From Nitrosopumilales archaeon (GTDB lineage: Archaea; Thermoproteota; Nitrososphaeria; Nitrososphaerales; Nitrososphaeraceae), in contig JBIQJB010000003.1 of NCBI GenBank assembly GCA_044507735.1, forward strand, positions 1 through 64,000: a stretch of 64,000 bases of DNA, in the 5' to 3' direction. Position numbers and translations under genes: made by a program. This document shows positions 3,867 through 28,523 of this stretch, in pieces; the first letter of the stretch is position 1; each line of letters starts with the position of its first letter. The notes under the pieces are model-generated. The model did no database searches and was not told the origin of the DNA. It was given only the letters and a program-made list of their open reading frames with translations.

Positions 3867-4123
3867 CGCATCTTCTTCCTCCTTTTTTATTCGTCCAAGC
3901 CCACATGCCAGGCGATATGTACCATATACCATTTCCGCAGCACTGTCAAGATACATTCATACTCTGAAAAACAGTCTCTTTTTACCTAGCAATTTTGCCG
4001 ACGTCGGCAGGACCGCAGTGCATAAGTATTCTACGCATCTTGATCCTGTGATAGATAGAGGTATTTTACCAATAAACTTGGCAACTTTTTATAGATCTTC
4101 TCCAAACAGATGTTATGCAATCA

Positions 4124-4151
4124 GTATTACGAAATTCACAATTAGTAATAC
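4124..4151. promoter_or_regulatory. NikR-type operator GTATTA-N16-TAATAC
   Basis: Perfect inverted repeat with E. coli NikR spacing (GTATGA-N16-TCATAC), between the TATA box (4086-4093) and the SBP start. Confidence 0.7.
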
Positions 4152-4166
4152 CTTTGCAAGAGGGGT

Positions 4167-5243
4167 TTGGCGTCACAAATGTCAGGGCAACAACCTAGAA
4201 GAAAGCTAATCGGAATTATTGTGACAATAGGCCTAGCCGCTGCGATTATTGCAGGAGTGTCATTCTCTATTTTTACGGCGGGCGAGGGCAATAGCACAAC
4301 ATCTGGCAGTAATGCCACTTCTTCTTCTACCAAGGGCACTATATCTACCGAGAAACTCAATGTTGTAACTTCTGTTGCACCAATAACAAACATAGTTAGA
4401 AACGTCGGAGGAGACAGGATAGAACTAACAGGCATAGTTCCAGAAGGAGTAAATTCGCACACTTTTCAGCTGACTCCATCGGACGCTATCAGGGTCAGGA
4501 ATGCAGATCTTGTCATCATTAACGGATTGCATCTGGAAGTCGATTTTGAGAGGGTTGTCGAGGCTGCCGGCGACTCTGACTTGCAGCTGCTGAAACTTGC
4601 AGATAATACGATAACAAGGGACGAGTGGGTGTTTGATTTCAGCTTCCCCGAAGCAGAAGGCGACCCCAATCCGCACCTGTGGCTCAATGTTGCACATGCA
4701 ATAAAGTATGCCGAACTTGTGCGGGACAAGCTGGTGGAAATGGATCCTGCTAACGCTGATTACTACTCTTCAAATGCAGACAGATACATTGCGCTACTTC
4801 AACAACTGGATCAGGGGATAATGCAGGCAGTCCAGACGGTTCCACCTGAAAACAGGAAGCTTGTCACATATCATGACTCTTGGGCATACTTTGCTCCTCG
4901 CTACGGCATGACAGTGATTGGCGCTGTACAGCCGTCAGATTTTGGAGAGCCAACACCGCAGGAGGTGGCCAGAATAATAGACCAGATACGTGCAGAGGGT
5001 GTGCCAGCAGTATTTGCTTCAGAAGTGTTTCCAAGCCGAGTCGTAGATCAGATAGCAAGGGAAGCAAATGTACAGATCGTCGAGACACTCAGAGATGACG
5101 ACCTCCCCGGCGAACCAGGAGCACCGGAGAATACCTATGTTGGAATGATGCTGGACAATATGCGCGCAATGTTGGTATCGCTTGGCGGGAATGTCGATGC
5201 TCTGGAAGGGATAGATCCAAGCAACACCTACGAGAGGAGCTGA
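4167..5243 (+). CDS. Metal ABC transporter substrate-binding protein (ZnuA/TroA cluster A-I)
   Basis: N-terminal anchor; motifs NSHTFQLTP, NGLHLE, NPHLWL, YHDSWAYF. Confidence 0.92.
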   Translation: MASQMSGQQPRRKLIGIIVTIGLAAAIIAGVSFSIFTAGEGNSTTSGSNATSSSTKGTISTEKLNVVTSVAPITNIVRNVGGDRIELTGIVPEGVNSHTFQLTPSDAIRVRNADLVIINGLHLEVDFERVVEAAGDSDLQLLKLADNTITRDEWVFDFSFPEAEGDPNPHLWLNVAHAIKYAELVRDKLVEMDPANADYYSSNADRYIALLQQLDQGIMQAVQTVPPENRKLVTYHDSWAYFAPRYGMTVIGAVQPSDFGEPTPQEVARIIDQIRAEGVPAVFASEVFPSRVVDQIAREANVQIVETLRDDDLPGEPGAPENTYVGMMLDNMRAMLVSLGGNVDALEGIDPSNTYERS

Positions 5244-15180: not shown

Positions 15181-15287
15181 GTTGTATTCACCATTTTTTT
15201 CTATTTACATATTGTTGGTGGGTATTCAGGCGATGCTTTGATTGTCGCTGTGCAATAGTAGCTTGCATTGTGCATTCTCGCTACCTC

Positions 15288-16118
15288 CTATGATTTTGAC
15301 GTTCTGAGGCCCTTCATCACCACATCCCAAGGAGTTACAATAGAGTCATGAGCCAGCAGGAGGCAAGGGGTATCGAGGTGTAGCAAGAGTTCAGCAGCCA
15401 AACCCGCGGGCGCATCCCGGTCAACAGATCTGGCCGGAGCTAGCTCCAGGATATTGATTTGAGTCTCAAACAGTCCGTCCAGACCCTTCGACACGATGGC
15501 CTCTCTTCCTCCATAGCTTACGAGGTATTCGAGTATCTTGCGATCATTCAAGACTGCGATATTGGCGCTATTGTTGTCCTTGACGATCACGTTTCGAATG
15601 TCCTGCTCCAGCATCATTTCCAGAGCTTCCCCTATGCTTGCGTTGTCATTCTTTACCGCGACCAAGGGAGAAGACAATCGTTCGATCGGCGTTTCCAGCT
15701 TTGAAGCTACTACGACCCTAAGCACATCGCGTACGGACAGCGAAGTGGCCACGCTCTGCTTGACAGTTATTGGCACAAATCCAAATCCAGTCTTGTCAAA
15801 GACATCCAATGCGACCCTAAGGGGGTAGTCAGCCTGCACTGCGTGTCCAGCCCTGTTCATCACCATTGATGTAGTGTCCTGCATCCAATCCCTTGGGTGG
15901 TATAGTATGTGTTCGATGATTTGCCTACCACCGATAGTGCCTACCACAGCCTTCTGGTTGTCAAGAACCACGACGCCATCGACATAGATCTGAGGGCCAA
16001 TAGCCAGGAATGTGGCAACTTGCAGTAGCGGATCTGACGGGCTGGCGGAGAGGAGTGGTCGCTTGAAAATGTGGGGTACCGCATCAAATATCGGCCGCTC
16101 TACTTCTGCAAGCTGCAT
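15288..16118 (-). CDS. Multi-CBS-domain protein
   Basis: Repeated CBS-like segments (ALEMMLEQDIRNVIV, SVRDVL, TPWDVV). Confidence 0.8.
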   Translation of the reverse strand: MQLAEVERPIFDAVPHIFKRPLLSASPSDPLLQVATFLAIGPQIYVDGVVVLDNQKAVVGTIGGRQIIEHILYHPRDWMQDTTSMVMNRAGHAVQADYPLRVALDVFDKTGFGFVPITVKQSVATSLSVRDVLRVVVASKLETPIERLSSPLVAVKNDNASIGEALEMMLEQDIRNVIVKDNNSANIAVLNDRKILEYLVSYGGREAIVSKGLDGLFETQINILELAPARSVDRDAPAGLAAELLLHLDTPCLLLAHDSIVTPWDVVMKGLRTSKS

Positions 16119-16130
16119 ATCACATTCCTC

Positions 16131-16301
16131 CTAGTCAAGAGTCGCATAGCCTAGTAGCTTTAGGAGTCTTTTCACCGTCATCTGATCCATCCCTACCTGA
16201 TCAGAGATGTCCTTTATCGAAATCCCTGCTTCATACATCTTGGACATCTGCTTTAGAATTCTTGCGTCTATCCTCGTTGTATTTACTACGATACCCGTCA
16301 T
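16131..16301 (-). CDS. 56-aa helix-turn-helix microprotein (not in the ORF track)
   Basis: MTGIVVNTTRIDARILKQMSKMYEAGISIKDISDQVGMDQMTVKRLLKLLGYATLD; TATA-like TTTATC about 25 nt upstream; first gene ahead of the CBS gene. Confidence 0.75.
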   Translation of the reverse strand: MTGIVVNTTRIDARILKQMSKMYEAGISIKDISDQVGMDQMTVKRLLKLLGYATLD

Positions 16302-16344: not shown

Positions 16345-16359
16345 TGCATTGCAGTGCAA
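16345..16359. promoter_or_regulatory. (TGCAN)3 element
   Basis: TGCAT TGCAG TGCAA about 14 bp upstream of the TATA box of the HTH-CBS unit. Confidence 0.65.
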
Positions 16360-16891
16360 TCACGAAGCTATGGAGAACCACCGTATTCCGGTAGACGGTA
16401 AAGGCGGCATGGCAATTGCTCAGTCCAGCTGGCGTGATAGCCTTCGCTACTTCGCATTCACCTTGCTGTTTGACAACCCCAAGTTGTATGCATCCATCTA
16501 GGTCAGGGCGAATTTTCTGCGATCTCGTAGATCGCAAAAAGATGGTCAGGTCAAGTTTACACGATCCAAACAGCAATTTCTACTCCACAAACTAGGGATA
16601 CAAAAACCACCCACATTGACCAAAGAGCCTGTAGAGTTAGTCAACGCGTCGTTTCCATTTTTTTCTCAGGGCATCCGTCCTGACCGTTGCGCGCGAAATT
16701 CCACTCTTGCCCCATACCGATATCTCGATTATTAGGAGCAACTGCGAGCTCCTGTCTGCACCATATGGGGCAATGGACCAAGCTTATTGCTTACAAAGTC
16801 GGTCTAAAGACGTCCAGGGGCGGAAGGGTATGGATAAGTCTTGAAGCTTTATTTGTGATATAGAATCGATAAAGGTGGAGTTAGGAACGGC

Positions 16892-18268
16892 ATGAACATG
16901 ACCCAATTGACACTACCATTTCTGGATGCTTACTTGCACGGTATCAGACTGGCAAATGCATACTATTCAGTGTATTTGCGATCATTTGAAAGAGCGGTTA
17001 CAGAAGAAAGGAACGCCATGGCTGAAGCCGTGACAGAGTGGGGCAGAGGTAAGGGAACGGGTTCCTACAACATGGTGCAATCGATCTACAACAAGTGGCT
17101 AGCCAATGTCGACAAGGAACTAGAAGCAGAATTGAAATCTGAGCATTTCACCAGTCTGCTCGCAAGATACACTCAGTTGCTCTTGGATCAGCGTTCAATC
17201 TTCAGAAAGGCGGGCTATCCGGTAGACTACATGGACCGTCTGTTTGACTGGTCCGTCAGAAGCCACCTGGTTTTTTCGCTCATCCCAAAGGAATCGCATC
17301 TGACACCACACGATGTGGTATACAGGAAGGGAAAGGTGCGACTGCTCCACTATCGCACTCACGGACATGAGGAACCCGGTGCGAAAAAGCAGCCACTTCT
17401 GATAATCTACGCGCCCATCAACACCTTCCACATACTGGACCTGAATCCTAGGCGAAGTGTGGTTAGAGACCTCCTTTCGTCAGGAGGCCTGGATATCTAC
17501 CTGCTTGATTGGGGTTACCCCGACTGGAATGATGACCACCTGTCCTTCGACGACTATATCGGACACGTGCATGACGCCGTTAAAGTGGTAAAGGATCAAA
17601 CCAAGGAAGACAAGGTATCGATTCTCGGATACTGCTGGGGCGGAATATTCGCACTCGTCCATGCTGCCCTGAATCCTGAAGAGGTCAGGAACTTGGTCCT
17701 CATGGCCGTTCCGGTAGATTTCAGCAAGGACGACACCATACTTGCAAAGTGGTCGAAGGTGATTGATGTTGATGGAATGATGGACGAGTTCGGGCACATG
17801 GACGGCCAGGTACTTGATCTGGGTTTTCTGATGCGAAATCCGCCCAGATATGGCTTTGACAAGTACTTGAAACTCTTCCAGAAAGTTCATGACAGCGAAT
17901 TTGTCGACACCTTCATTGATGTCGAAAGGTGGCTGTACGATACTCCCCCGATACCCGGTCTCCTGCACCGCCAAATCATCAACGACTGTTACAGGAATAA
18001 CCTGTTGGTATCAGGCGGTATGGAGATTGTCAAAGACGGCAAGAAGAGCAGAGTTGATCTTGGCCGGATTTCCATGCCGGTGCTATCCATAATAGCAGAG
18101 AAGGATGACCTCGTTTCTCCTGCAGCCTCCGCAGCAGTAAACGACCACATATCAAGCAAAGACAAGTCAGTTCTGAATAACCCGGGCGGTCACGTTGCGC
18201 TATGTATTAGCAACTACTCGCACAGAAAGCTCTGGCCAGAGGTGGCAAGATGGCTCTTCTCAAGATAG
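16892..18268 (+). CDS. phaC: Class III-type polyhydroxyalkanoate synthase with an N-terminal PhaE-like extension
   Basis: TPHDVVY, PLLIIYAPIN...ILDL, YLLDWGYP, GYCWGG (catalytic Cys), EKDDLV, GGHV. Confidence 0.88.
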   Translation: MNMTQLTLPFLDAYLHGIRLANAYYSVYLRSFERAVTEERNAMAEAVTEWGRGKGTGSYNMVQSIYNKWLANVDKELEAELKSEHFTSLLARYTQLLLDQRSIFRKAGYPVDYMDRLFDWSVRSHLVFSLIPKESHLTPHDVVYRKGKVRLLHYRTHGHEEPGAKKQPLLIIYAPINTFHILDLNPRRSVVRDLLSSGGLDIYLLDWGYPDWNDDHLSFDDYIGHVHDAVKVVKDQTKEDKVSILGYCWGGIFALVHAALNPEEVRNLVLMAVPVDFSKDDTILAKWSKVIDVDGMMDEFGHMDGQVLDLGFLMRNPPRYGFDKYLKLFQKVHDSEFVDTFIDVERWLYDTPPIPGLLHRQIINDCYRNNLLVSGGMEIVKDGKKSRVDLGRISMPVLSIIAEKDDLVSPAASAAVNDHISSKDKSVLNNPGGHVALCISNYSHRKLWPEVARWLFSR

Positions 18269-18308
18269 GGTTGAAGGATGATAACTTTTTGCTCGAGGCA
18301 TCATTGCC

Positions 18309-18758
18309 CTAGAAAAAGAGCTCCCATACTTCTGATGCGGCGAGATCTTCGTCGGTCAGATTTCTCTTGAGATACCTTGCAAGGTCAGTAACCGTAATGA
18401 TACCAACAATATCTTGACTGGTCGCATCCTCAACCAAGAGATGTCTGAGCTTCTTTTGGCCCATTACCCTCGCGGCATCTTCTACAGACGAGCCTTTCTC
18501 TATAGATACTACAGGGTATGACATCAATGACCCGGTGCTGATGCTGCTTGGCGACATCCCGCTTGCAACGACCTTTACGACATCACGCTCAGTCAGTATC
18601 CCGATAATCTTGTCCTTTTCGTCGGTTATCGCGATTGAGCTTATGTTGCGATCCATCATCCTCTTTGCGGCATCAAATACGCTGTCCTTCCATCCCATCG
18701 TAATCATCCTAGTGGTCATGTAGTCCGCTACTGTCGCCCCATTGTTGTTCGGCGCCAT
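18309..18758 (-). CDS. CBS-domain protein
   Basis: VADYMT, GILTERD and GIITVTD motifs; ATG 18758 is about 25 nt after the TATA box. Confidence 0.9.
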   Translation of the reverse strand: MAPNNNGATVADYMTTRMITMGWKDSVFDAAKRMMDRNISSIAITDEKDKIIGILTERDVVKVVASGMSPSSISTGSLMSYPVVSIEKGSSVEDAARVMGQKKLRHLLVEDATSQDIVGIITVTDLARYLKRNLTDEDLAASEVWELFF

Positions 18759-18800
18759 TCCACAGGTAAGTTTGTCATCGAATAATATATTCTGACTGAA

Positions 18801-18820
18801 TGTAGTGCCCTGCACTGCAA
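18801..18820. promoter_or_regulatory. (TGCAN)-type element shared by two divergent promoters
   Basis: TGTAG TGCCC TGCAC TGCAA about 10 bp from a TATA-like box on each side. Confidence 0.55.
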
Positions 18821-18857
18821 ACATCCACCATATATCTAGGGGCACCAAAGCTGACCC

Positions 18858-19124
18858 ATGCAACAGGAATACACCTGCGGAGAAGGTGCGGGCTATTTTG
18901 CAGAAACTCACATCTTGGTGATGGACGAATCAGTATGTGTTGCCGATGCTGCAAGGGCCATGCGTCAAAAGGGTGTGTCAAGCGTCCTTGTGAGCAGGAA
19001 TGGCAACAATGAGCCTGTTGGAATAGTCACAGAAAAAGAGGTTCTTTACCGGCTCGTCGCAGAGGACAGGAGTCCGTTCAGGACGGTTCTCAAAGACATC
19101 ATGAGCCCCCTGGATAATCAGTGA
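18858..19124 (+). pseudogene. Truncated CBS-domain gene
   Basis: One CBS unit (VADAARAMRQKGVSSVLV...GIVTEKE...DIMSP) followed by a premature stop. Confidence 0.65.
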
Positions 19125-19567
19125 CGGATGTGCAGCCGATAACTGATAGCCAATTGGAGGAGCTGCGAGATAGTGTCCAAAAGTGACAACAATATCTTAG
19201 CTGAAATTGTAAACGAATCGTTGCATACCAATCCTGTCCATGTGCCCGAGCGGACCCGCTCCTTTTTCACTTTTGGTCGCGATTCTGATAAAAGGAATCA
19301 TCAAAGCAAGCATATTTTTGAACCCCGATTCAACTACCAAGAACATGACGAGGCTGCGGTCACTTCCAGGAGTGTGGATTCAGCACATGCCACCTTCAAC
19401 TGCTTTCCATTGATTATGTTCCCGAGTGCCCAGCTTTCAAGCGTTCAGCGTGGCAAAAAACCCCGCTATCCAGTTCACTGCAGAAGCATCGGCATCACCA
19501 CAAACCGAAATTGTCAGTAGCAACTCACAAGATGGTTTTTAAACCCGCTCACCGAAATTATGGATGG

Positions 19568-20179
19568 ATGGCTGGAGAATACTCTGAGGGCAGAGGCGAG
19601 AATACTCCTCAAGCGAAAAGGACCCGGAGCGTGACATTCAGGCTGGATGCTTCCGTGATAGACGAGCTCCAGACAGAGGCAGATAACAGAGAGATTTCTC
19701 TCAACGTGCTTGTCAACCAGATCTTGAGGAGGTATTCAGAATGGGATAGATTTGAAAACAAGATTGGAATGATGCCAGTCCCCAAAGTGATTTTGTCTAG
19801 CATAATTGACAAGGCCATCTCCGTTGCAAAGAGCAACGGGATCAAAGATGTAGACCATTACAGTGACGAGATCATAAAGCAGGCTGCACAGATTGCGTTT
19901 GGTCTGATGAAGGACTCGGTGCTCTTCATGAAGAGACAGTACAACCTGTGGGTAGTGCTGTCAGTTCTCGAAGAATACATGAAGGTATCAGGCATCAAAG
20001 CAGACCACAAGCTGGAAGGGTCCAGAAAGCACGTATTCATCATACAGCACGAGCTTGGTGAAAACTGGTCACTTTTCACAAAGGAGCTGCTTACCCTCAT
20101 CTTCCAGAATTTGGCCAACGTGAGGGCCGACATTAGCACGACTCCAAATACCACTGTGGCTGAAGTTGTTCTAAGATAA
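19568..20179 (+). CDS. RHH (CopG-like) transcription regulator with a C-terminal effector-type domain
   Basis: TRSVTFRLD..VIDELQTEA....ISLNVLVNQIL; follows TATA-like TTTTAAA at about 19537. Confidence 0.8.
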   Translation: MAGEYSEGRGENTPQAKRTRSVTFRLDASVIDELQTEADNREISLNVLVNQILRRYSEWDRFENKIGMMPVPKVILSSIIDKAISVAKSNGIKDVDHYSDEIIKQAAQIAFGLMKDSVLFMKRQYNLWVVLSVLEEYMKVSGIKADHKLEGSRKHVFIIQHELGENWSLFTKELLTLIFQNLANVRADISTTPNTTVAEVVLR

Positions 20180-20182
20180 CAC

Positions 20183-20197
20183 TGCGTTGCACTGCAA
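20183..20197. promoter_or_regulatory. (TGCAN)3 element
   Basis: TGCGT TGCAC TGCAA 9 bp upstream of TTATCTA, before the SnoaL-like gene. Confidence 0.55.
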
Positions 20198-20281
20198 TCA
20201 TAGCAGTTATCTATGTTCAGCCTGTAGCTAGTGCACCAGGAGTGAGAAACAATAGCTTTGAGGTCTGGGAGCGAAGCACAG

Positions 20282-20647
20282 ATGCCACTTACAGGCGAAG
20301 AGATGGTATATCGGTACTTCAAGTGTATCGATACCAAGGACCTGGATGGCATCTTGGACCTTTTCGACCACGATGCCACAATTCATGAGCCGTTCAGTAA
20401 CATATCTGGAGGACTGAGAGGAAGATCCTCGATACAGCCATTCCTCAAGGTAGCAATGATGGCCAGTACCAGCTTGCAGCGCACGATAAGTCTCGAAAAG
20501 CCAACCAGACCCGGTGCCAACAAAATAACAGCACTGGTAACATTTGAAAAAGGCGACAGGGTCAAAGGCAGGTTCACGTTTGAATTCACAAATGGCGAGG
20601 CCGGATCGAAAAAGATCAGGTCACTGAACATCGAATTTTTTGTTTAA
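20282..20647 (+). CDS. SnoaL-like/NTF2-fold protein
   Basis: YF..ID.KDLDGILDLF..DATIHEPF...GLRGR pattern. Confidence 0.8.
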   Translation: MPLTGEEMVYRYFKCIDTKDLDGILDLFDHDATIHEPFSNISGGLRGRSSIQPFLKVAMMASTSLQRTISLEKPTRPGANKITALVTFEKGDRVKGRFTFEFTNGEAGSKKIRSLNIEFFV

Positions 20648-20757
20648 TGTTGCACAGCCTATAGTAGTGTGCAGGCGGCACTGACTGTGCGTCGAATAGT
20701 GATGGGAAAGCTACTAGACTTGCAGTTGGTATCCATTGAAAAAGGGGCGCTCAAGGG

Positions 20758-20904
20758 TTATGTCCTCAATATCAATTCCTTGAGCTGTGCAATCTGGTAG
20801 AACTCATCGCATTTGATGCATTTCCACCACCTCGAATTGATATCTTTAACGTGCGCGATAAGAATCTCTTCCAGCTGATTGGTACATTTGGGGCAGTGTA
20901 GCAT
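20758..20904 (-). CDS. 48-aa zinc-ribbon microprotein (not in the ORF track)
   Basis: MLHCPKCTNQLEEILIAHVKDINSRWWKCIKCDEFYQIAQLKELILRT; GGAGG upstream. Confidence 0.65.
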   Translation of the reverse strand: MLHCPKCTNQLEEILIAHVKDINSRWWKCIKCDEFYQIAQLKELILRT

Positions 20905-20962
20905 TTGTGGCAGTCATCCCTCCATCCAACAGACTGCGGCATGAAGGTATAAGTGGCCGGTG

Positions 20963-21001
20963 TACAGTGCAGTGAAATCTACTCGGTGCAATGCAGTGCA
21001 T
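20963..21001. promoter_or_regulatory. Two (TGCAN)-type elements between divergent genes
   Basis: TACAG TGCAG TGAAA (20963-20977) and TGCAA TGCAG TGCAT (20987-21001). Confidence 0.6.
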
Positions 21002-21050
21002 GCCACAGTAGTCGCATTGCTTAATATCAAAACTGGAGTTTTCAAGGTCG

Positions 21051-21884
21051 ATGCATAAAGGCCATCAGACAGGCAAAATTGCCAAGGCGGCCATCGCTAT
21101 AGGGATACTATCTGTAGCGGTGCTGCTGTCAGGAGCAACAACCAACGCATTCGCCCTCCACACCTTTGGCGGAACATACATTGTAAACATCATTCCCGGC
21201 GCTGCGCACCGAGATAGCCTCTACCACTACTACCCAGATTCTATCGCAATCCCTGTAGGCACGGAAGTCGCATGGTTCAATGGCGATCCCGAACAGCCAC
21301 ATACTGTAACCAGCGGCAGTCCCGGTGATCAAGACACAGGAATGCTGTTCAATTCCGGTGTAATGTCATATCAGCGATTCTTCCACTACGAATTCGAAGA
21401 AGAAGGGGACTATCAATACTATTGCATAATCCATCCCTGGAGGACTGGAATGGTTCACGTCAATGGTCAACTCGAGCGCGGCGATCACTTTGAGTTCTCG
21501 ACCGGAACAGGTAGCACCTGGAACGTTTCAGCATTTGATAGGAATCTCTTGAAATTTGAACCAACCACCGTGTCACTCGAAGAATCAACTCCTGCAACCT
21601 ACTACTTCACCATGTTCAACAACGATACAAGACAGACTGTCTACAATGGGTTCTTCCCTTCGACAAACAACTTTTTGATAGAGCTGATATCCGGCGACTA
21701 TAACGCCACACAGACTTACGGTCCAGATAGAGCATCCACGATACATTCAACGCCGGGTGCGTATCATGCGCAAGGGAACTTCGAGCCGGGCACCTATACC
21801 ATCACCATAGTCCTGTACTCGGTGAATGGCATGCTCTTGAACCCAACTGCAGTCGACCAGTTCCAGCTTGAAATAACCGGATAG
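21051..21884 (+). CDS. Secreted plastocyanin-like cupredoxin-domain protein
   Basis: Signal peptide; IPVGTEVAWFN, PHTVTSG, FNSG, YYCIIHPWRTG. Confidence 0.88.
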   Translation: MHKGHQTGKIAKAAIAIGILSVAVLLSGATTNAFALHTFGGTYIVNIIPGAAHRDSLYHYYPDSIAIPVGTEVAWFNGDPEQPHTVTSGSPGDQDTGMLFNSGVMSYQRFFHYEFEEEGDYQYYCIIHPWRTGMVHVNGQLERGDHFEFSTGTGSTWNVSAFDRNLLKFEPTTVSLEESTPATYYFTMFNNDTRQTVYNGFFPSTNNFLIELISGDYNATQTYGPDRASTIHSTPGAYHAQGNFEPGTYTITIVLYSVNGMLLNPTAVDQFQLEITG

Positions 21885-22008
21885 CAAGCCTAGCCAAATA
21901 GCGGTCCGCCGGGCCGCATTCCCGTTTTTTTCCAAAGTTATCATCGTTGTGTAGCCTGTGGTATTGCAGACATCCTTTATATATTCAGGAAACCGATTAC
22001 ATATGATT

Positions 22009-22233
22009 ATGGCAAATTACGAAGCTTTGAAAGCCAGTTTGGACAAGAACGGAGAATTGATGATCCGAATCGACACCGGCGAACAGTTGGAACTGCACAA
22101 GCACAATGTAAAGTTTGAAGATTCCACCAAGGAAATCGTGGTTGACGCCGGCACTGAAACATACTGGATAGGCGCTGACCGAGTGTCATATTACTGGATC
22201 CACAAAGAAGGCTTTGAGAAGGGCAAGGACTAG
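22009..22233 (+). CDS. Small conserved-looking hypothetical protein
   Basis: TTTATATA box about 26 nt upstream; GELMIRIDTGEQLELHKHN; T-rich tract after the stop. Confidence 0.7.
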   Translation: MANYEALKASLDKNGELMIRIDTGEQLELHKHNVKFEDSTKEIVVDAGTETYWIGADRVSYYWIHKEGFEKGKD

Positions 22234-22397
22234 TAAAGAAAAAATCCCTTTTGCCCCTCCTTTATTTTGCAGCATTCTTCCTTTCTAGGACGGCTGGGCT
22301 TTCATCTTGAATTCAAAGGACTCAAGTAGATCGATTTTAGAATTTCCTCGCTTTCAAATTCTTCGGGCAAGCCTGCTGACTATCGCGCAACGATGCA

Positions 22398-22853
22398 TCA
22401 TCTTACGATCACAACAGGGCATCCAGCCGTCTCCGAGACCCTTCTTGCCACGCTCCCCAGGGTGACCATTTTGTCGCCCTTCAGCTGCCTGCTGCCGATG
22501 ACTATCATTTCTGCTTTTTCATCCCTTGCGATCGATACAATTTCCTCAGCCGGCGACCCTACACCAAGCAGAAATCTCGCGTTCACTCCGTGATCCTTGG
22601 CCTTTTGAATCCTCTCCTTCATCATGATCTCCGCTCCAGTCTTTAAGATCCTGATAATTTGGGTCTTGGCACTTTCAAGAGTGGTTCTTTCGCTGATTAG
22701 ACCAAGAGTTGTGCTTGGAGGCACGAACCTGCTGTCCACAATGTGCACGATTATTATCTCTGACTTGAAGGCATTTGCGAATTCTATTGCCTTGTCAAGA
22801 GCCTTGTCGGACATTTCAGTCCCGTCATGCGGTACCAATATTGGTTTTGCCAT
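22398..22853 (-). CDS. Universal stress protein (UspA family)
   Basis: ILVPHDG, GSPAEEI, IVIGSR and LGSVA..V....CPV motifs. Confidence 0.93.
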   Translation of the reverse strand: MAKPILVPHDGTEMSDKALDKAIEFANAFKSEIIIVHIVDSRFVPPSTTLGLISERTTLESAKTQIIRILKTGAEIMMKERIQKAKDHGVNARFLLGVGSPAEEIVSIARDEKAEMIVIGSRQLKGDKMVTLGSVARRVSETAGCPVVIVR

Positions 22854-22892
22854 GGCTTTGACATGGAGTACATGATATTTACGGCTAAGGAA

Positions 22893-22912
22893 TGTATTGC
22901 AATGCACTGCGT
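22893..22912. promoter_or_regulatory. (TGCAN)4 element upstream of USP
   Basis: TGTAT TGCAA TGCAC TGCGT; the first 17 nt are identical to 23345-23361. Confidence 0.7.
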
Positions 22913-23344
22913 TATTGGCATTGGTTCCTCCTGTCTATCCAGCGTGAACACTGGTCCCGCGGAAAAGCCGTCAGACTACATAGCTGCAAACATCGTTTAA
23001 CGGAGACCTGGTAGTTACCAGTCCGTGCCCAACTCAAGCCTCATAGTCCCATGGTGCTATGTAATGACTGCGATTGATTTGAGTCGGCAAGTGGCGGATG
23101 CTGTTTCTTGAAGCGAGCATATGATCTTTGATTCCGCGCAAATCGTATTTTTCTGTGCGGCGCCAAATTCTAGCGGGCCCTGCTTCCTCTTGCCGGCCCT
23201 GCCCCCAAAATTTGCCGAGTGTCCTGCCGCACTTTTGAGAATTCTTGGCCCAGAAAATAAGAATCTGTCGTAGTGAATGAGCGCCACCGTCAGTCAGTGT
23301 CCTGCAAGCCGATTCAGCCGACAGCTCATCCAAAAAAACGCGGG

Positions 23345-23364
23345 TGTATTGCAATGCACTGTAT
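23345..23364. promoter_or_regulatory. (TGCAN)4 element upstream of the multicopper oxidase
   Basis: TGTAT TGCAA TGCAC TGTAT, 9 bp before TTAATAT. Confidence 0.7.
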
Positions 23365-23405
23365 ACGCGCTAGTTAATATCGTGTATTGAAAAGTTGCCG
23401 CCGAG

Positions 23406-24731
23406 ATGGAGAGTTCTAACAAGAAACGAGCAGGTGCTTTTGTTTTGTGGGGCATATTGATTGCTGCCGCAGCAACAGGGGCAGTGCTTTCAGTTTCCAG
23501 CTTAAATCTGGGCGGAGGAGTAGGTGTATCAGCCGCTCCAAGCCCTGTGCACAGAGTTTACACGATGGTAGCAGAAGACGCGGAACTTGAGATAGCTCCC
23601 GGAGAGGTGGTAAAGGTATGGACATTTAACGGCACGATGCCCGGGCCGACGCTGCGATTCACAGAGGGCGACAACGTCACAATCCATTTTATCAACAAGA
23701 CCCCGCTGATCCACACCGTGCATTTCCACGGGAACCACGATGAAAAGAATGACGGAGTAGTTCCGCAGATCATGCCGGGGGAGAACTATACGTATAATTT
23801 CATTGCAGACCCGGCTGGAGCGTTCATGTACCACTGCCATGCATATCCGACCTCACTCCACATACGGATGGGAATGTATGGATCGCTCATAGTGGACCCA
23901 AAGGACCCGGGAAGACTTGAACCGGCAAGGGAATTTGGACTCGTGCTGAGCGAATTCGATCCGGAGAACCAGGACAACTTTGTCGCAAAATACTATCCTG
24001 TTAACGGCTACGCCGACCAGTACATGGGCGCAAACGCGCTGCAAGTGAAGCAAAACGAGCTTGTGCGATTCTACGTCCTGAATATCGGCACGACGATCCC
24101 GTATGCATTCCACCTGCACAGCACCATATTCAAGGTCTACCAATCAGGGCTGCCCTCGAACGATGCCATCGATGCGCAGACCATCGAGATAGGACCCGGA
24201 AATACCGCCATAGTGGAAGCCAGGTGGCAATGGCCCGGCAATTACCTATTCCACACCCACGGAATTCAGGAAGAGAGGGGAAACATGGGCGAAGTGACCG
24301 TGGCCCCCAGTGACCCCAATGAACGGCTGACTGAAAGCGTATCAATGATCGACTGGCAGTACGAATTGCAGAAGAAGCTGCAAAAGCCGAAAGTGATCGA
24401 ATACAGCAACCTGTCAGCCCAAGTACCTCAGCAATCGCACAGTCATTCCGGAGACGCTGGAACAACCGTCAAGATTGTAAATGGAGCGTGGGATAAGAAT
24501 CAAAAAGACTACTATCAGCCGGCAGAGATAACGGTCGCAAAGGGATCCTCGATAAGCTGGACAAACGAAGATAGCGTGGTGCACACTGTGACTAGCAAGC
24601 AGCAAGGCCTCTTTGATTCTTCCATAATCTCCGCGGGCCAGGCATGGCAATACGAGTTCACCGAAGAAGGAGAGTACCAGTACTACTGCATAGTGCACCC
24701 GTGGATGGAAGGAACGGTGCGGGTAGACTGA
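23406..24731 (+). CDS. Two-domain multicopper oxidase fused to a C-terminal blue-copper domain
   Basis: HTVHFH, YHCH...H....M, FHLH and FHTH motifs; C-terminal HTVTS...YYCIVHPWM; signal anchor. Confidence 0.9.
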   Translation: MESSNKKRAGAFVLWGILIAAAATGAVLSVSSLNLGGGVGVSAAPSPVHRVYTMVAEDAELEIAPGEVVKVWTFNGTMPGPTLRFTEGDNVTIHFINKTPLIHTVHFHGNHDEKNDGVVPQIMPGENYTYNFIADPAGAFMYHCHAYPTSLHIRMGMYGSLIVDPKDPGRLEPAREFGLVLSEFDPENQDNFVAKYYPVNGYADQYMGANALQVKQNELVRFYVLNIGTTIPYAFHLHSTIFKVYQSGLPSNDAIDAQTIEIGPGNTAIVEARWQWPGNYLFHTHGIQEERGNMGEVTVAPSDPNERLTESVSMIDWQYELQKKLQKPKVIEYSNLSAQVPQQSHSHSGDAGTTVKIVNGAWDKNQKDYYQPAEITVAKGSSISWTNEDSVVHTVTSKQQGLFDSSIISAGQAWQYEFTEEGEYQYYCIVHPWMEGTVRVD

Positions 24732-24795
24732 CCCAGGGGCCGTCGCCCTTTTAATTTATTTTTCACATACCGGTCTCAGTTTCCGGCACCAATAT

Positions 24796-24815
24796 TGTTG
24801 TGCATTGCACAGCAT
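24796..24815. promoter_or_regulatory. (TGCAN)-type element upstream of Hsp20
   Basis: TGTTG TGCAT TGCAC AGCAT about 40-58 nt before the ATG. Confidence 0.6.
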
Positions 24816-24853
24816 ACCTACTTTTCAAATAGAAATTTACCTTCATTTCCAGC

Positions 24854-25336
24854 ATGGGAAAATCCCAAGGGATTGTCAAAAAGGGAGATCGGCAACAGGG
24901 ATACCTCGACGACATCTTTGAGAACTTTAGAAGGGAATTGGAAAGCGCACTAAGACCCTGGCACTCAGGGTTCAGATTTCCGTCGCTGTTTGATGATGAG
25001 GTCAGAATACCGCTCTGCGACATGGAAGACATGGGAGACAGATACGAACTTCAAGCGGAATTGCCGGGGATCGACAAGGACAAGATACGCATCAAGGCCA
25101 CTGGCAACTCGATAGAGATATCAGCAGAGCAATCAGAGAAGAGCGAGGAAAAAAGAAAAGATTATGTTTACAGCGAAAGGTCCCACAGATCCTTCTACCG
25201 CAAGATAGCAGTGCCGGAAGAAATAGTGCCATCAAAGATAGACGCAAAGATGAATAACGGCGTACTCCTCATCAAGCTTCCAAAGAAGAATCCCATCAAG
25301 TCCAAAGAAGAGGTAACAGAAGTCGAGGTCAAATAA
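24854..25336 (+). CDS. Hsp20/alpha-crystallin small heat shock protein
   Basis: AELPGIDK, ERS...FYR, AKMNNGVL.I.LPK and the C-terminal VEVK motif. Confidence 0.93.
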   Translation: MGKSQGIVKKGDRQQGYLDDIFENFRRELESALRPWHSGFRFPSLFDDEVRIPLCDMEDMGDRYELQAELPGIDKDKIRIKATGNSIEISAEQSEKSEEKRKDYVYSERSHRSFYRKIAVPEEIVPSKIDAKMNNGVLLIKLPKKNPIKSKEEVTEVEVK

Positions 25337-25337
25337 A

Positions 25338-25496
25338 ATGGCAAGAATGCGGATGTCCCACAACTACCACGAGTCAAAGGTGATCAACCCTGAGACATTT
25401 TGCACAAAGTGCTGGACCGCCACTCCTCGGGTATGCGAATGGTGCGGAGCGTGCTACACCTGCCACAAAGGTACATCTGCAGAAAAGCACTTCTAA
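25338..25496 (+). CDS. 52-aa Cys-rich microprotein (not in the ORF track)
   Basis: MARMRMSHNYHESKVINPETFCTKCWTATPRVCEWCGACYTCHKGTSAEKHF; 1 nt after the Hsp20 stop; homolog at 32215-32382. Confidence 0.75.
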   Translation: MARMRMSHNYHESKVINPETFCTKCWTATPRVCEWCGACYTCHKGTSAEKHF

Positions 25497-25823
25497 TATT
25501 TCCTCCTCCCACTCCCCAATTTTTTAGGGGCTCGTCCAATCGTCAAGATGCGGGCTTGGCTGTCAACCTTCTTTCTGATTCATGCCGCGCCGATACGATG
25601 GAATATCGTCGGCAATTGAGTCGACATGACATTGCGCTTGTTATTTTGAACCACCAGATGTTGCTGCTCATGAAACACGACTCTTGGGGGAAATCGTAAC
25701 TGAATCATTGCGCAAATTATTACCTTGCTAGTTTTCCCGCTTCACAAGAATGAAGAGATACTTTGTTTCCCATGCCTTTCATTAGGCTAGTCAGATGGAC
25801 TCTTGGTATGTAACCAGACCCAG

Positions 25824-26267
25824 TCAAATGTCCAGTACGGCTTTCAGGCGTCCGTAGCGCTTGTAGTCGGTTGCAAGTATCTTGGCCAGTTTCCTTGTGA
25901 TGTCAGTTATGGACAGTACGCCTACAAGGGAGCCATCTTCCTCCAGCACGACAAGCCTCTTTATCCTTTTCTTTGACATAACGGCGGCAGCGGTTTCAAT
26001 GGAATCGTATGCCTTGATTGTGATTACCGGGGATGACATGATCTCCTGAACTGCAATCTCTTTCGGAGATTTGTTCAAAACTGTAACCCTTTTGAGAATG
26101 TCTCTCTCGGTAACTATGCCAACAGGTTTTCCTTCAACATCGACAACTACTACAGAGCCAACCTTCTTCTTGACCATGAGCTTGGCCGCATCCAGAGCTG
26201 ACGGGGTGCGTTCTATCCTCAGAGAGACGACCTTTCTTGGTGACACGATTTCGCTTACTGCGCTCAT
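25824..26267 (-). CDS. CBS-domain protein
   Basis: AAKLMVKKKVGSVVV, GIVTERDI, IMSSPVI and GVLSITDI motifs. Confidence 0.92.
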   Translation of the reverse strand: MSAVSEIVSPRKVVSLRIERTPSALDAAKLMVKKKVGSVVVVDVEGKPVGIVTERDILKRVTVLNKSPKEIAVQEIMSSPVITIKAYDSIETAAAVMSKKRIKRLVVLEEDGSLVGVLSITDITRKLAKILATDYKRYGRLKAVLDI

Positions 26268-26814
26268 TCTTTTCGCCTTCCCATAAAATAGAACGGCGAC
26301 CATAAAAATGCAGCCAGGTAATACTTGTTGGAAAACGTCACAGTTGCCATGGTCATGTTGTAGGTGTAACCAGTCAATGTGGAGGAACACCACTCAATTA
26401 ATGTTTTCTCGAATTCATTTACTTCCATTGGCTGACCTGCTGACCTCCCGATGGTCTTGTCGCTCCTATCAGGAGCCGCCGACATGGGTCATAGTTGACA
26501 CCAATCACCGAGAACAATCCGCGTGCGGCACTCTTTGTTGATGATAGCATCGCTTAAGGAATTCAAACTGAATATCTGGCAAAAATATCAGGGTCTCATA
26601 TCAGCCATACTGCGTCAATCGATTGTTGAGACTAGACTACCTTGAGGTACTAGCGTGTATCCAAATGATGCGGCTGTGAGGCAAGGTCGAATGATAACAA
26701 TTACCCCCATCTGTAAGGGTGATCAAATAGGAGGACATTGGACTACGCGTAGCACCCTCTCGGCTTCTCTCTACCTGCACTATCTTGTTTTTGCCTGCAA
26801 TATATCAATTGTCT

Positions 26815-27160
26815 ATTTGCATAAAGAGGGCAGGTAGTAGTGTCAGATGCACATCCAGCAAGACGCTACTAAGGGACGGCCGCTAGAATATGCTAGGCCC
26901 TCCCGTTACCGCAACTTCCAGATCAACGCGATATTCTGCGCAAATTCCACCATCGTCCCGGTCCAATTTTTCAGCATCGTACTACTTTCCGCTTCTTGCC
27001 CCAAGGTTCTATTTTCTTGATTTTTCCAACAACACATCGTGAAAGAGCACACCCGTCCCTATGCACTACTCGGTAAGCACTTCCACCAGCAGGATATCAC
27101 AATGCCTCGATCATGCGCTGATTGCAGTGCTAACCTCTACCAATATGTCGGAAAGCATCA
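26815..27160 (-). pseudogene. Possible highly decayed USP-like gene
   Basis: Stop-riddled fragments such as MVEFAQN and VDLEVAVTGGPSIF*RPSLSSV resemble a USP C-terminus. Confidence 0.25.
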
Positions 27161-27265
27161 CCATTGATTGGAAAGGGGAATCGAGAAGTAATACTTTCAG
27201 GCCTGTGGCACACTGTACTGAAAACAATATTGATATTTATCCTGCTGCGCTATAGTTAGCAGTAG

Positions 27266-28105
27266 ATGAATCCTGGATCGGATGGGAGTAACAGTAACAA
27301 TCTACCCGTCGTTTCCTCAGACGGTTACACAAAGGTCTTGCCCGTTGCAAACCAAAAGATCGTGCTTGAAAGGCCGGTGCTGATCGCAGGCTTTCCAGAC
27401 AGCGGAATGATAGGGTCAGTCACAATCAATCACATAATAGAACAGCTAAACATGCATCAGATAGCCTATATCGAATCCCAGCATGTAATGCCGGCTGCCA
27501 TCTTCATTGGAAAGAGATTCAGACATGCGTTCAGGATTTATGCCAACGATTCAGGGACGGTGTGCGCACTGATATGCGAAGTGCCCGTCACGGCAAGGGG
27601 AACCTATTCTATAATCAACACCATCGTTGACTGGTGCATGAACGCAACGGTCAGTGAAATAGTGGTGCTTGGAGGAATACTGCCATCCAATTTCAGCCCC
27701 CCGTACCTGCTTGAAAGGAAAGCGATGCTCCTCAGAAACGAACTTGCAGAGGGTCAACCCGGTCAGAATTCCAGATCGGCCGATACCACGGGAATGGCGG
27801 TCCCGGACGACGCCATCATCGTTGGTCTTCCCGGCTCCCTCCTGTCTGTTTGCGCCGCGCGCGGTCTGAGCTGCAGCGCCCTGATGATCCCGACAATGGC
27901 AGAAGCACCAGACCCAGAAGGAGCCGCCATCGTGCTAGAAGCGCTGCCCAAGATCGTGCCCGGGTTAAACGTTGACACATCTTCTCTGAGGCTAAAAGCC
28001 GAGATGATAAAGAAGCATCTGGAAGAATTTCTGAAGATGCACCGACAGCAACTGGAGGATTATGAGCGCTCGGCAAGCCGTGAGGCTGAAAGGATATACA
28101 AATAG
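27266..28105 (+). CDS. PAC2-family proteasome assembly chaperone-like protein
   Basis: PVLIAGFPDSGMIG, FRIYA, IVVLGG and PDPEGAA motifs. Confidence 0.88.
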   Translation: MNPGSDGSNSNNLPVVSSDGYTKVLPVANQKIVLERPVLIAGFPDSGMIGSVTINHIIEQLNMHQIAYIESQHVMPAAIFIGKRFRHAFRIYANDSGTVCALICEVPVTARGTYSIINTIVDWCMNATVSEIVVLGGILPSNFSPPYLLERKAMLLRNELAEGQPGQNSRSADTTGMAVPDDAIIVGLPGSLLSVCAARGLSCSALMIPTMAEAPDPEGAAIVLEALPKIVPGLNVDTSSLRLKAEMIKKHLEEFLKMHRQQLEDYERSASREAERIYK

Positions 28106-28115
28106 AGCAAGAGAA

Positions 28116-28460
28116 CTAGAGGGCCGAATCCCCTTCTTCCTTTGTTCCGATATCATATGCGTCTTTTACTTCATAGACAAAGATCTTGCCAATAGAAGAG
28201 GAGCCGCTCCCAAGGAAATTCAACACGTCGGTAATGATGGACTTTGCCATATCATCGGACACTACCACTTCTATTTTTGTACGGTAGCCAAACTCTGGAA
28301 CGTACGTCATGACGCCTCTGCCGACCGGCACAGGCTCGTGCTTTGCCCGGCCTCTGCCTTTGATGTCGTAAAATGACATCCCGCCCACCCCGTGCTCGTG
28401 TAGTATCATGTTGAGATCCACCAAGTTCTCGTGTGGAATTATGATATCGAGCCTCTTCAT
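28116..28460 (-). CDS. P-II family signal transduction protein (GlnB/GlnK-like)
   Basis: MKRLDIII, KGRGR T-loop, KIEVVV, GKIFV, IGTKEEGDSAL. Confidence 0.9.
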   Translation of the reverse strand: MKRLDIIIPHENLVDLNMILHEHGVGGMSFYDIKGRGRAKHEPVPVGRGVMTYVPEFGYRTKIEVVVSDDMAKSIITDVLNFLGSGSSSIGKIFVYEVKDAYDIGTKEEGDSAL

Positions 28461-28508
28461 ATATGACGGATCAATGGCTCGATAATCTAATAAGAGCTTG
28501 GAATTTTG

Positions 28509-28523
28509 TGTAATGCACTGCAT
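28509..28523. promoter_or_regulatory. (TGCAN)3 element upstream of PII
   Basis: TGTAA TGCAC TGCAT about 15 bp upstream of the TATA-like box. Confidence 0.6.

Follow-up and report, generated by a model that had tools for sequence, protein, structure and literature searches.

Introduction

To our knowledge, almost nothing is known of transcription regulation in ammonia-oxidising archaea, and our search of the literature on this subject found only two copper-related motifs of Nitrososphaera viennensis and comparative regulons such as that of RbkR. Archaeal activators usually sit just upstream of the TFB recognition element (BRE); Ptr2 of Methanocaldococcus jannaschii, an Lrp-family helix-turn-helix (HTH) protein, binds paired palindromic sites directly upstream of BRE/TATA and helps in the recruitment of TBP and TFB. 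Proteins of the ribbon-helix-helix (RHH, MetJ/Arc/CopG) superfamily are obligate dimers whose paired strands make an antiparallel two-stranded ribbon that inserts into the major groove. Among RHH regulators, CopG and Arc are proteins of approximately 45–53 amino acids (aa), NikR joins an N-terminal RHH domain to a C-terminal ACT-like nickel-binding domain, and the known operator spacings are 7–11 bp. Here we describe a promoter element, a run of TGCA boxes with a 5-bp period (the TGCA array), in a 64,000-nt stretch of DNA from an archaeon of the Nitrososphaeraceae (assembly GCA_044507735.1, contig JBIQJB010000003.1, positions 1 to 64,000). This whole stretch, referred to as the window, is G000:C10:1-64000 in our numbering, and the genome, G000, consists of 2.33 Mb in 55 contigs. 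Our reading, to which we give a probability of roughly 0.5, is that the array is the DNA-binding site of a sequence-specific regulator that controls a stress- or dormancy-type regulon in Nitrososphaeraceae, with an RHH protein carrying a sensor-like domain as the likeliest regulator.

The mycobacterial DosR regulon, whose regulator is a LuxR-type response regulator, contains Hsp20/alpha-crystallin, a CBS-pair protein and PNPOx-like proteins. According to the abstract of PMC2914252, six universal stress proteins (USPs) belong to it. For CopG, PMC2724298 and PMC3413123 describe a beta-ribbon that recognises TGCA, a self-palindrome; each 13-bp element has two such boxes with 5 bp between them, bound by cooperative dimers. 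The two copper-limitation motifs of N. viennensis in Reyes et al. 2020 (PMC7785015), TTCSGSMTTTGWACYANT and RATTTAAABATAGATTTAAATAATAAS, lie 35–70 nt before start codons, are conserved in related species, and belong to gene sets comprising CopC/D and DsbD, or surface proteins.

Abundance and distribution of TGCA arrays

Searches with the pattern TGCANTGCANTGCA, allowing up to one mismatch unless a match is called exact (the three-box form), revealed 10 matches at 8 sites in the window, all of them within positions 16345–28522, whereas 100 dinucleotide-preserving shuffles of the window gave a mean of 0.51 matches and a maximum of 5, and none reached 10. The whole genome contained 25 matches at approximately 20 sites, with 10 matches inside the 12-kb stretch of the window; clustering was also seen beyond the window, on contigs C52 and C9 (3 matches each) and C17 (2 matches). 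When the genome was split by a simple gene call based on open reading frames (ORFs), which assigned 78% to coding DNA, the exact three-box form was found 7 times in intergenic DNA and never in called coding DNA, so the array is not as frequent in coding DNA, a comparison that had been suggested together with the original prediction. The two-box form TGCAnTGCA was enriched 4.4-fold in intergenic DNA, compared with 1.08-fold for single TGCA, 1.1–2.1-fold for other TGCA spacings and 0–1.6-fold for eight other tetramers at the same spacing, and the reversed control pattern was scarce (0–2 per genome, even with one mismatch). The parts of the window containing nuo, tRNA and metal-uptake genes had no array match at up to one mismatch, in agreement with the earlier statement that those promoters lack the element.

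Conservation of arrays at orthologous promoters

To follow the arrays across relatives we used three samples. The first consisted of 31 related genomes, including 18 of the same genus and 12 from other families of the order; its tallies of arrays, RHH genes and small HTH genes include the unpublished genome G009 as one row, without array and without close RHH orthologue, and no conclusion rests on it. Exact arrays were present in 9 of the 18 same-genus genomes (1–12 copies) and in 1 of the 12 from other families, and the reversed control was zero in 30 of the 31 genomes. In 20 stretches from relatives, arrays preceded orthologues of Hsp20, USP, a protein with a CBS pair and a C2H2 zinc finger (CBS-zf), a CBS-pair protein, SnoaL, cupredoxin, multicopper oxidase (MCO), an operon of HTH, CBS and alcohol dehydrogenase (ADH) genes, and PII, despite shuffled gene order.

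The second sample comprised 66 loci (736 kb) in draft genomes of Nitrososphaera, Nitrososphaeraceae and Nitrosopolaris, taken from a scan for relatives of the RHH protein. Exact arrays numbered 110 in these loci, compared with 0–3 exact matches for eleven control tetramers, and allowing one mismatch gave 198 site clusters; at least one site was found in 61 of the 66 loci around RHH orthologues. The ORFs starting downstream of the sites were mostly those of CBS-zf (48), SnoaL (27), USP (25), Hsp20 (21), CBS-pair (19), MCO (8) and ADH (6) proteins, and the start of Hsp20 was exactly 39 nt from the array in 15 of its 21 cases. Other families at the canonical distance, some of them uncharacterised, were two small Cys-rich proteins, a membrane cupredoxin, an amino-acid permease and a thermosome subunit; in genome G127, GAPDH was an array target.

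Promoters were also picked by orthology instead of by the motif, an array being scored when it lay within 110 nt with up to one mismatch. All promoters of Hsp20 (13/13), CBS-zf (6/6) and MCO (4/4) carried an array, as did 8/15 of CBS-pair, 19/48 of USP, 18/40 of SnoaL, 6/20 of ADH and 4/12 of PII genes, and operon-internal genes were nearly without it (RHH, 0/18; the 52-aa ORF after Hsp20, 1/12). Conservation upstream of orthologs, which had been named as a check on the element, was thus found for Hsp20, USP, CBS-domain, SnoaL, MCO, PII and ADH genes, and the view of the array as a shared cis-element of a stress-type gene set is supported by these orthologous promoters and by the fixed spacing described below.

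In the third sample, a draw of 121 Nitrososphaeraceae genomes at least 80% complete, 61 contained an exact array, with up to 24 copies per genome. Outside the family, the complete genome G030, from another family of the order, has a 4-box array followed after 10 nt by ATATATC and, at +39, by the ATG of an operon encoding an HTH_20 protein, a 4xCBS protein and an RHH protein. On balance we lean no more than evenly towards a regulon made up of several USPs and CBS-domain proteins with Hsp20, a SnoaL-like protein, MCO, cupredoxins, a PII-like protein and a Zn-dependent ADH, joined in some relatives by a thermosome subunit, GAPDH and an amino-acid permease.

Position of arrays relative to the core promoter

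Alignment of 228 oriented promoters from the window, other contigs and the 66 related loci, with the array end nearest the promoter as the fixed point, revealed a TATA core beginning approximately 10 nt past the array end, with A at +12 in 73% and T at +15 in 80% of the promoters. The original prediction had placed the element 7–19 bp upstream of a TATA-like box, which is roughly right, and its location directly upstream of BRE/TATA on either strand is borne out by the alignment; this location, a trait of archaeal upstream activating sites, was found in the 228 promoters and in another family of the order. The distance from array end to ATG had a mode of 39 nt (50 of the 228 promoters), most others being at 38–48 nt and the typical range 39–49 nt. 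Among 24 sites examined in G000, 16 had the start of an ORF of at least 40 aa 30–65 nt away, whereas positions this far from called starts make up only 3.4% of the genome.

The archaeal TATA box is centred approximately 26–27 nt before the start site, and given the TATA position observed here transcription would therefore start at or next to the ATG, yielding leaderless mRNA. On this footing the array would occupy positions from about −40 to −53, immediately next to the BRE. At 18806 and at 20987 there is a divergent gene on either side of the array, both at canonical distance, so that one array could apparently serve two divergent promoters. The spacers between boxes comprised one A/T and one G/C in 84 of 93 distinct exact arrays; the element therefore truly repeats every 10 bp (TGCA-W-TGCA-S) and falls short of a perfect palindrome.

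This fixed geometry bears on the idea that no dedicated protein is involved and that the arrays are a TGCA methylation cluster, bendable DNA, or what is left of a mobile element by which promoters were dispersed. The 4-bp palindrome TGCA, with its flexible TG/CA steps, would suit such an origin, and so would the additional likeness of the sequences beside the copies at 16345 and 28509. Against it, the flanks differ between most sites, the distance to the TATA box varies by no more than a few nucleotides from genus to genus, the boxes persist at orthologous promoters whose adjoining sequence and gene order have changed, and the single TGCA is not enriched in intergenic DNA (the ratio of 1.08 above). 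We consider this explanation highly improbable.

Predicted fold of the protein encoded at 19568–20176

The candidate regulator is encoded on the + strand at 19568–20176 (203 aa) and is predicted to consist of an RHH domain (residues ~17–68) and a C-terminal part with an H-NOX/V4R/Bet3-like fold (~64–203). Its sequence is 92% identical to the 'hypothetical protein' Ngar_c20420 of Ca. Nitrososphaera gargensis, for which no Pfam domain is on record. The match of the window protein to CopG_antitoxin was below the 28-bit cut-off (E 0.007–0.008, 17.3–17.6 bits), and a profile search against the PDB gave RHH chains at weak E of 0.17–0.6. Among 85 diverse family members, Pfam matches were to CopG_antitoxin (32), HicB (17), BrnA (7), RHH_1 (2) and RHH_4 (2), of which CopG_antitoxin, HicB and BrnA are families that we take to be ribbon-helix-helix.

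The AlphaFold monomer model (mean predicted local distance difference test score, pLDDT, 93.6) exhibited an N-terminal strand followed by two helices in RHH topology. Residues 17–68 aligned with RHH structures at Z 5.1–5.7 and a root-mean-square deviation (rmsd) of 1.7–2.9 over whole 44–51-residue chains, including TacA1 (Z 5.7), Rv0298 (Z 5.6, rmsd 1.9, 50/50 residues) and the PutA RHH domain on DNA (Z 5.4, rmsd 1.7, 44/44), as well as CdbA, CopA_SO, the archaeal viral SvtR, and AmrZ on DNA. At family level the protein is, as modelled, an RHH protein.

Residues 64–203 matched the folds of BcsD (Z 9.2), VirS (8.8) and TRAPP/Bet3 (8.1 and 7.1), H-NOX proteins (7.3 for 4u99 and 1xbn, 6.9 and 6.8, over 121–128 residues; Foldseek E 1.6e-3), the sensor domains of the phenol sensors DmpR (7.2) and PoxR (6.6), and the V4R protein MJ1460 (6.1). 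Hallmarks of H-NOX domains are a proximal histidine that ligates the heme, located on the helix preceding the sheet, and a Y-x-S-x-R propionate motif. The helix at 127–140 (LWVVLSVLEEYMKV) contains no histidine, a correspondence judged from the order of secondary structure, and the YxSxR motif is absent from the protein. The conserved C-terminal residues are H161, G164 and S168 in QH(E/D)xGxxWS. Because the scores are middling and the canonical heme-binding residues absent, we call the C-terminal part a ligand-sensor-like fold and not H-NOX.

The RHH-sensor family is expanded, with 7 matches in G000 (among them those on C37, C36, C43, C22 and C4); no 5-bp-period arrays were found beside the five more distant paralogues of this genome. 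A library of 1.84 billion proteins yielded 913 representatives at E up to 0.001, mostly archaeal by Atlas taxa and all unannotated.

Candidate regulators of the arrays

The gene at 19568 had been proposed as a regulator in the original prediction, and it is a credible candidate, having an RHH fold and being linked to arrays in several genera. The protein could be a natural reader of TGCA arrays, because the RHH repressor CopG reads the self-palindrome TGCA. In the first sample, exact arrays were found in 8 of the 9 genomes with a close RHH orthologue versus 3 of the 22 without, and of the 22 loci whose RHH protein was at least 75% identical, 21 had an array within 120 nt after its gene and 20 had one less than 1.5 kb upstream. 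The RHH gene lies within an array-controlled operon, so that its product, as the reader, would control its own expression. The RHH operon of genera g18 and g23 has one-mismatch arrays or TGCA-N6-TGCA sites in front of it, and in genome G065, in which the RHH gene has 3 stop codons and the CBS-zf gene is intact, there are no arrays. On sequence and structural modelling, the RHH-sensor protein appears to be the most likely regulator, at somewhat less than even odds.

Several observations weigh against it. Across the family sample, in which an RHH homologue at E up to 1e-40 was counted as presence, the RHH gene predicted arrays weakly (exact array in 42 of 71 genomes with a homologue versus 19 of 50 without), and the CBS-zf gene was the better predictor (38/40 with versus 23/81 without). 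In genus g14, all 18 of 18 genomes encode an RHH protein of 56–62% identity and only 3 have an exact array; in seven loci of this genus that were read, the predicted DNA-reading residues were unchanged, but the genes around were unrelated and no TGCA site lay within ~4 kb. Genome G127 (96% complete) has 7 exact arrays and the CBS-zf gene, and its best RHH match is only 29% identical, and G058, G084, G082 and G053 have 3–9 arrays without a close RHH protein. The 5-bp box spacing would be too tight for RHH dimers on every box. For the C-terminal part, most fold matches were at Z 6–9, a range rated common for the comparison method, and none of the 85 family members matched Pfam V4R or HNOB (E up to 0.01 for V4R). 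More generally, the proposed link between protein and array draws on sequence, gene context and a model.

The predicted DNA-reading residues of the beta-strand were S-T-R in g1, g14, g18, G021 and G030 and C-T-R in g23; as a predictor of array presence they were not discriminating. Genome G021, with RHH proteins of 66–67% identity, contained only two-box TGCA-N6-TGCA sites and no clear regulon. In g14, a conserved 19-bp perfect palindrome, TTCACTGCA(A/T)TGCAGTGAA, is present at G031:C1:1478822 and G059:C1:134602, distant from the RHH homologue; it is the only array-like site with up to one mismatch in G031 and one of three in G059, and may be the remaining operator of this clade.

A third candidate, not named in the original prediction, is the CBS-zf protein (~185–205 aa), whose co-occurrence with the array at least equals that of the RHH protein. 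It could bind the array itself, with the CBS pair sensing adenosine nucleotides so that the arrays would define an energy-state regulon. The protein ends in a CPYC...H...H finger and a GSGLLEGDLRQW tail, both nearly invariant in 25 orthologues, and its gene lies just upstream of the RHH gene in most relatives, usually co-transcribed with it, and on contig C52 in G000. Its co-occurrence with exact arrays is the best of the candidates (the 38/40 versus 23/81 above), and at least three arrays were present in 30 of 40 genomes with the gene versus 5 of 81 without; no match to the gene was obtained in genera g14, g23 and g18, which have few exact arrays (3/18, 0/18 and 0/2, respectively), and G127, G058 and G084 have 5–7 arrays and the CBS-zf gene without a close RHH protein. 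However, the promoter of the CBS-zf gene itself nearly always carries an array (48 downstream-ORF matches and 6/6 orthologous promoters), so the co-occurrence is partly built in. Arrays also occur without the gene, in G011, G030, G032, G092 and G114 and as one-mismatch forms in g18 and g23, where the RHH gene is present; G044 and G087 have a CBS-zf match with in-frame TGA stops, yet 8 and 11 arrays; and G065 and G080 have the gene and no arrays. A single C2H2 finger rarely binds sequence-specifically, and the window itself holds only an 88-aa remnant of the protein. In the supplement passages on the N. viennensis proteome (PMC12542715), the CBS-zf protein appears only in a gene list. A complex prediction with two RHH copies and one CBS-zf copy scored 0.00 without a verdict and is therefore no evidence either way. 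All in all, we regard the CBS-zf protein, the chief rival of the RHH protein, as an unlikely reader of the array.

Neither island candidate fits presence and absence cleanly, which leaves room for a regulator encoded elsewhere, such as an HTH protein of Lrp/AsnC, TrmB or ArsR type or a specialised TFB paralogue, with RHH and CBS-zf genes as targets only. G082 and G053 have 9 and 3 exact matches with neither gene (these drafts are 90% and 86% complete, and the three matches of G053 overlap at one site), and different HTH proteins occur in array-controlled operons of different genomes. On the other hand, no candidate factor of this kind was identified, and TFB contacts only ~6–7 bp beside the TATA box, not a 14–20-bp array further upstream. 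The original prediction had also named the HTH gene at 16131; this small HTH is present in only 3 of the 31 genomes, with arrays in 11, and the HTH_20 protein of G030 is unrelated to it, so it was rejected as prime regulator and is more likely a target. A regulator elsewhere is, in our estimate, distinctly unlikely. The remaining odds for the regulator's identity fall to the two island proteins acting together or to no dedicated protein.

If the RHH-sensor protein is the reader, its dimers would read the TGCA boxes through the beta-ribbon. Boxes 5 bp apart would lie on opposite helix faces and boxes 10 bp apart on the same face, so the dimers would probably occupy boxes 10 bp apart, of which a 4-box array offers two pairs. 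As the array would abut the BRE, the bound protein could touch or block TFB.

Activation or repression, and published expression data

We lean, with no more than even confidence, towards ligand-controlled activation, placing it slightly ahead of repression. The original prediction had taken the factor for an activator that helps to recruit TBP and TFB; the position of the array agrees with this, as it would with a repressor that blocks TFB at the neighbouring BRE, and the low basal mRNA of the N. viennensis island described below is a further, indirect hint. The 7 nt before the TATA box were less A-rich at array promoters, with A at −4 in 11% versus 52% (n = 38 versus 151 other G000 promoters, many of the 38 being related), which hints, in these few and related promoters, at a weaker BRE needing help. 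Alternatively, the bound factor could be a repressor beside the BRE that excludes TFB during growth and lets go of the DNA in response to a stress ligand. The array ends only ~3 nt from where a 6–7-nt BRE would start, a distance that would suit such a repressor; against it, overlap of the array with the TATA box or the start site, where most archaeal repressors bind, was never seen, and the reduced A content before TATA points to a promoter that needs help. Repression is nevertheless a real possibility, falling somewhat short of an even chance, for most characterised RHH regulators, including CopG and Arc, are repressors (as stated in passages of PMC2724298), and the N. viennensis data described below show island genes low in growing cultures, with the gene at the RHH position expressed and its protein constitutively present.

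The published N. viennensis genes were mapped onto our loci by annotation order, not by sequence, and the presence or absence of an array refers to the parallel same-genus locus, which limits what these data can add to the reading proposed here. In the published tables (PMC7785015), the island NVIE_003900-004130 runs in the order Hsp20, cupredoxin, PII, three unknowns, USP, two hypotheticals, UspA, 'CBS and zinc finger C2H2', CBS and USP, which parallels 13 of 13 genes of the array-bearing same-genus locus L137. According to its tabulated values, mRNA of the island was mostly low in both growth conditions (log2 ~3–5, compared with 8–10 for housekeeping genes), and NVIE_003980, at the RHH position, reached log2 7.4 (PMC7785015). 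Copper limitation raised Hsp20-2, cupredoxin, PII, USP and adh1 by 0.6–1.1 log2 and left CBS-zf and its neighbours unchanged; the strongest copper response of the island, +1.8 to +2.5, came from three genes that have no array in the parallel locus, which counts against our proposal (PMC7785015). In the passages available from the carbon-limitation proteome (PMC12542715), NVIE_003980 was present in all samples (~1.4e8), Hsp20-2 was present in one condition only, and the PII protein NVIE_003920 rose under carbon limitation. With genes matched by order, these partial data fit an inducible set with a constitutively present regulator. The only RNA run that covers the window (X1, 7% of words, as contigs) consisted of six short pieces and was uninformative on starts or levels.

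Array copies and genes in the window and elsewhere in the genome

The coordinates given in the original prediction for copies at 16345, 18801/18806, 20183, 20987, 22893, 23345, 24796/24801 and 28509, and for the weak copy at 20963, were all correct. The 'weaker copies' near 15264, 21960, 27204 and 29021 did not stand up: they have more than one mismatch and non-canonical spacing, and were not counted because they miss both the one-mismatch level and the canonical spacing. Pfam agreed with the earlier gene annotations across the array stretch, where the RHH-like protein is given as 203–222 aa.

The exact array at 16345–16358 (TGCAT TGCAG TGCA) precedes, with 43 nt between array and ATG, the small winged-HTH gene (16131–16301, − strand, 56 aa; target), which is followed in the same direction by a CBS-domain gene (15288–16118, − strand, 276 aa). 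Between this promoter and the next array, a PhaC-like alpha/beta hydrolase (16892–18268, 458 aa, weak PhaC_N match) lies inside the island and has no array at canonical distance. The array at 18801–18819 (TGTAG TGCCC TGCAC TGCA) stands between divergent promoters, 47 nt from the CBS-pair gene on its left (18309–18758, − strand, 149 aa; target) and 38 nt from a short CBS gene on its right (18858–19124, + strand, 88 aa), after which comes the RHH gene. This short ORF resembles the N-terminal part of the CBS-zf gene that precedes the RHH gene in most relatives. In the region at 18858–19124 and 19173–19520, the 88-aa CBS ORF has an 86-aa counterpart in locus L083, and the short form may be kept rather than freshly broken.

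The array at 20183–20196 (TGCGT TGCAC TGCA) begins 3 nt past the RHH stop codon, 85 nt upstream of the SnoaL-like gene (20282–20647, + strand, 121 aa; target). A weak two-box copy at 20963–20976 (TGCA C TGTA on the − strand) is worse than one mismatch. The exact array at 20987–21000 (TGCAA TGCAG TGCA) has the cupredoxin-like gene (21051–21884, + strand, 277 aa; target) 50 nt to its right and a small Zn-ribbon ORF (20772–20942, − strand, 56 aa) 44 nt to its left; the latter is a possible target, its small-ORF family lying 44–46 nt from arrays in relatives. The arrays at 22893–22911 (TGTAT TGCAA TGCAC TGCG), 39 nt upstream of the USP gene (22398–22853, − strand, 151 aa; target), and at 23345–23363 (TGTAT TGCAA TGCAC TGTA), 47 nt upstream of the gene for a two-domain MCO with a C-terminal cupredoxin domain (23406–24731, + strand, 441 aa; target), do share an identical 17-mer, TGTATTGCAATGCACTG, as had been noted earlier. 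The array at 24796–24814 (TGTTG TGCAT TGCAC AGCA) lies 39 nt upstream of Hsp20 (24854–25336, + strand, 160 aa; target), which is followed by a 52-aa Cys-rich ORF (25338–25496), and that at 28509–28522 (TGTAA TGCAC TGCA) lies 48 nt upstream of the PII-like gene (28116–28460, − strand, 114 aa; target).

The promoters at 16345 and 28509 are similar beyond the array (CAcaaaattcc..ag.c.ttat), a likeness in sequence that suggests promoter duplication. At 27121–27135 there is a two-box piece, TGCAGTGCT, then aacctctaccAATAT, resembling the right half of the 18806 promoter; the next gene, PAC2 (27266), is ~130 nt away.

Contig C52 contains a second, paralogous array cluster, with SnoaL, CBS plus C2H2 zinc finger followed by a second RHH copy, and 4xCBS followed by USP. 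A MEDS and receiver-domain protein at L001 (G000:C52) 4008–5006 adjoins this cluster and may be a signalling input. Other G000 array sites precede a USP (C41), uncharacterised proteins (C17, C51) and one of two amoA copies (C9). The two amoA copies, at C9:29654-30301 (L097) and C17:115233-115880 (L115), are 94% identical. The promoter of the C17 copy has the form common to most relatives, and the C9 copy has a TGTA/TGCA array ~58 nt before the ATG, at non-canonical spacing; among the amoA upstream regions examined, that of G016 has a 2-box piece and the other 16 have the usual amoA promoter. The C9 copy may be a true paralogue controlled by stress or may stem from another strain within the bin. 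We did not accept amoA as a secure member of the regulon, the array being found only at the C9 copy and at non-canonical spacing.

Discussion

The literature search found no TGCA array, no regulon of such content in ammonia-oxidising archaea, and no mention of the locus tag of the RHH gene or of its neighbours, which agrees with the statement in the original prediction that no motif like this had been described in these organisms. The element supplies a conserved cis-signal with fixed promoter geometry, ~20 target promoters per genome, and two candidate regulators that are present in cultured strains; entry into and exit from stress or starvation by slow-growing soil nitrifiers are therefore directly testable. 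If the RHH-sensor protein is the factor, the RHH family would gain a new domain combination and an unusual operator layout with a 5-bp box period.

A more far-reaching version of this proposal, which we hold as doubtful, would be a dormancy-like stress programme of soil ammonia-oxidising archaea, run by a one-component regulator of hitherto undescribed design in which an RHH reader is joined to an H-NOX/V4R-like ligand pocket. Such a reader would bind interdigitated TGCA boxes on both helix faces beside the BRE and would respond to a metabolite of ammonia oxidation or a redox signal (NO, O2 or a hydrophobic cofactor), and the programme would cover USPs, CBS proteins, Hsp20, copper oxidase and cupredoxins, to which some genomes would add a second amoA copy, GAPDH or a thermosome subunit.

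Compared with CopG and Arc, the system shares the TGCA box (of CopG) and, in the model of the candidate, the RHH fold. The CopG dyad passes through a central G:C pair, as given in passages of PMC2724298 and PMC3413123, and TGCA-S-TGCA here does likewise. In contrast to those systems, the array has 3–5 boxes, 1 nt apart (5-bp period), its same-face boxes are 6 nt apart rather than 5, and it ends ~10 nt upstream of TATA instead of forming an operator of two boxes, 5 bp apart, that overlaps the core promoter. The candidate is also far larger, with 203 aa and a large C-terminal sensor-like domain, and its regulon would comprise ~20 chromosomal promoters, versus one plasmid (pMV158) or phage (P22) promoter.

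The N. viennensis copper motifs resemble the array in that several genes have them upstream in common and that their host, too, is a soil ammonia oxidiser of this archaeal group; neither of them is the TGCA array, and their gene sets differ from the array regulon, so that identity with a published copper motif was rejected on the difference in sequence. With Ptr2 sites the array shares its place directly upstream of BRE/TATA, as the original prediction had proposed, but no Lrp-type gene is linked to arrays here. The modelled candidate has the one-component design of NikR, with an N-terminal RHH reader and a C-terminal ligand-sensing domain, whereas its C-terminal fold resembles H-NOX/V4R/Bet3 and is not ACT-like, and the operator differs. 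The DosR regulon is similar, by analogy, in gene content (USPs, Hsp20 and CBS-pair proteins), but has an unrelated regulator family and another motif and belongs to another domain of life. What is known in this comparison is thus the transcription-factor regulon with an upstream site, and what is new is the operator layout together with the RHH/sensor-fold protein.

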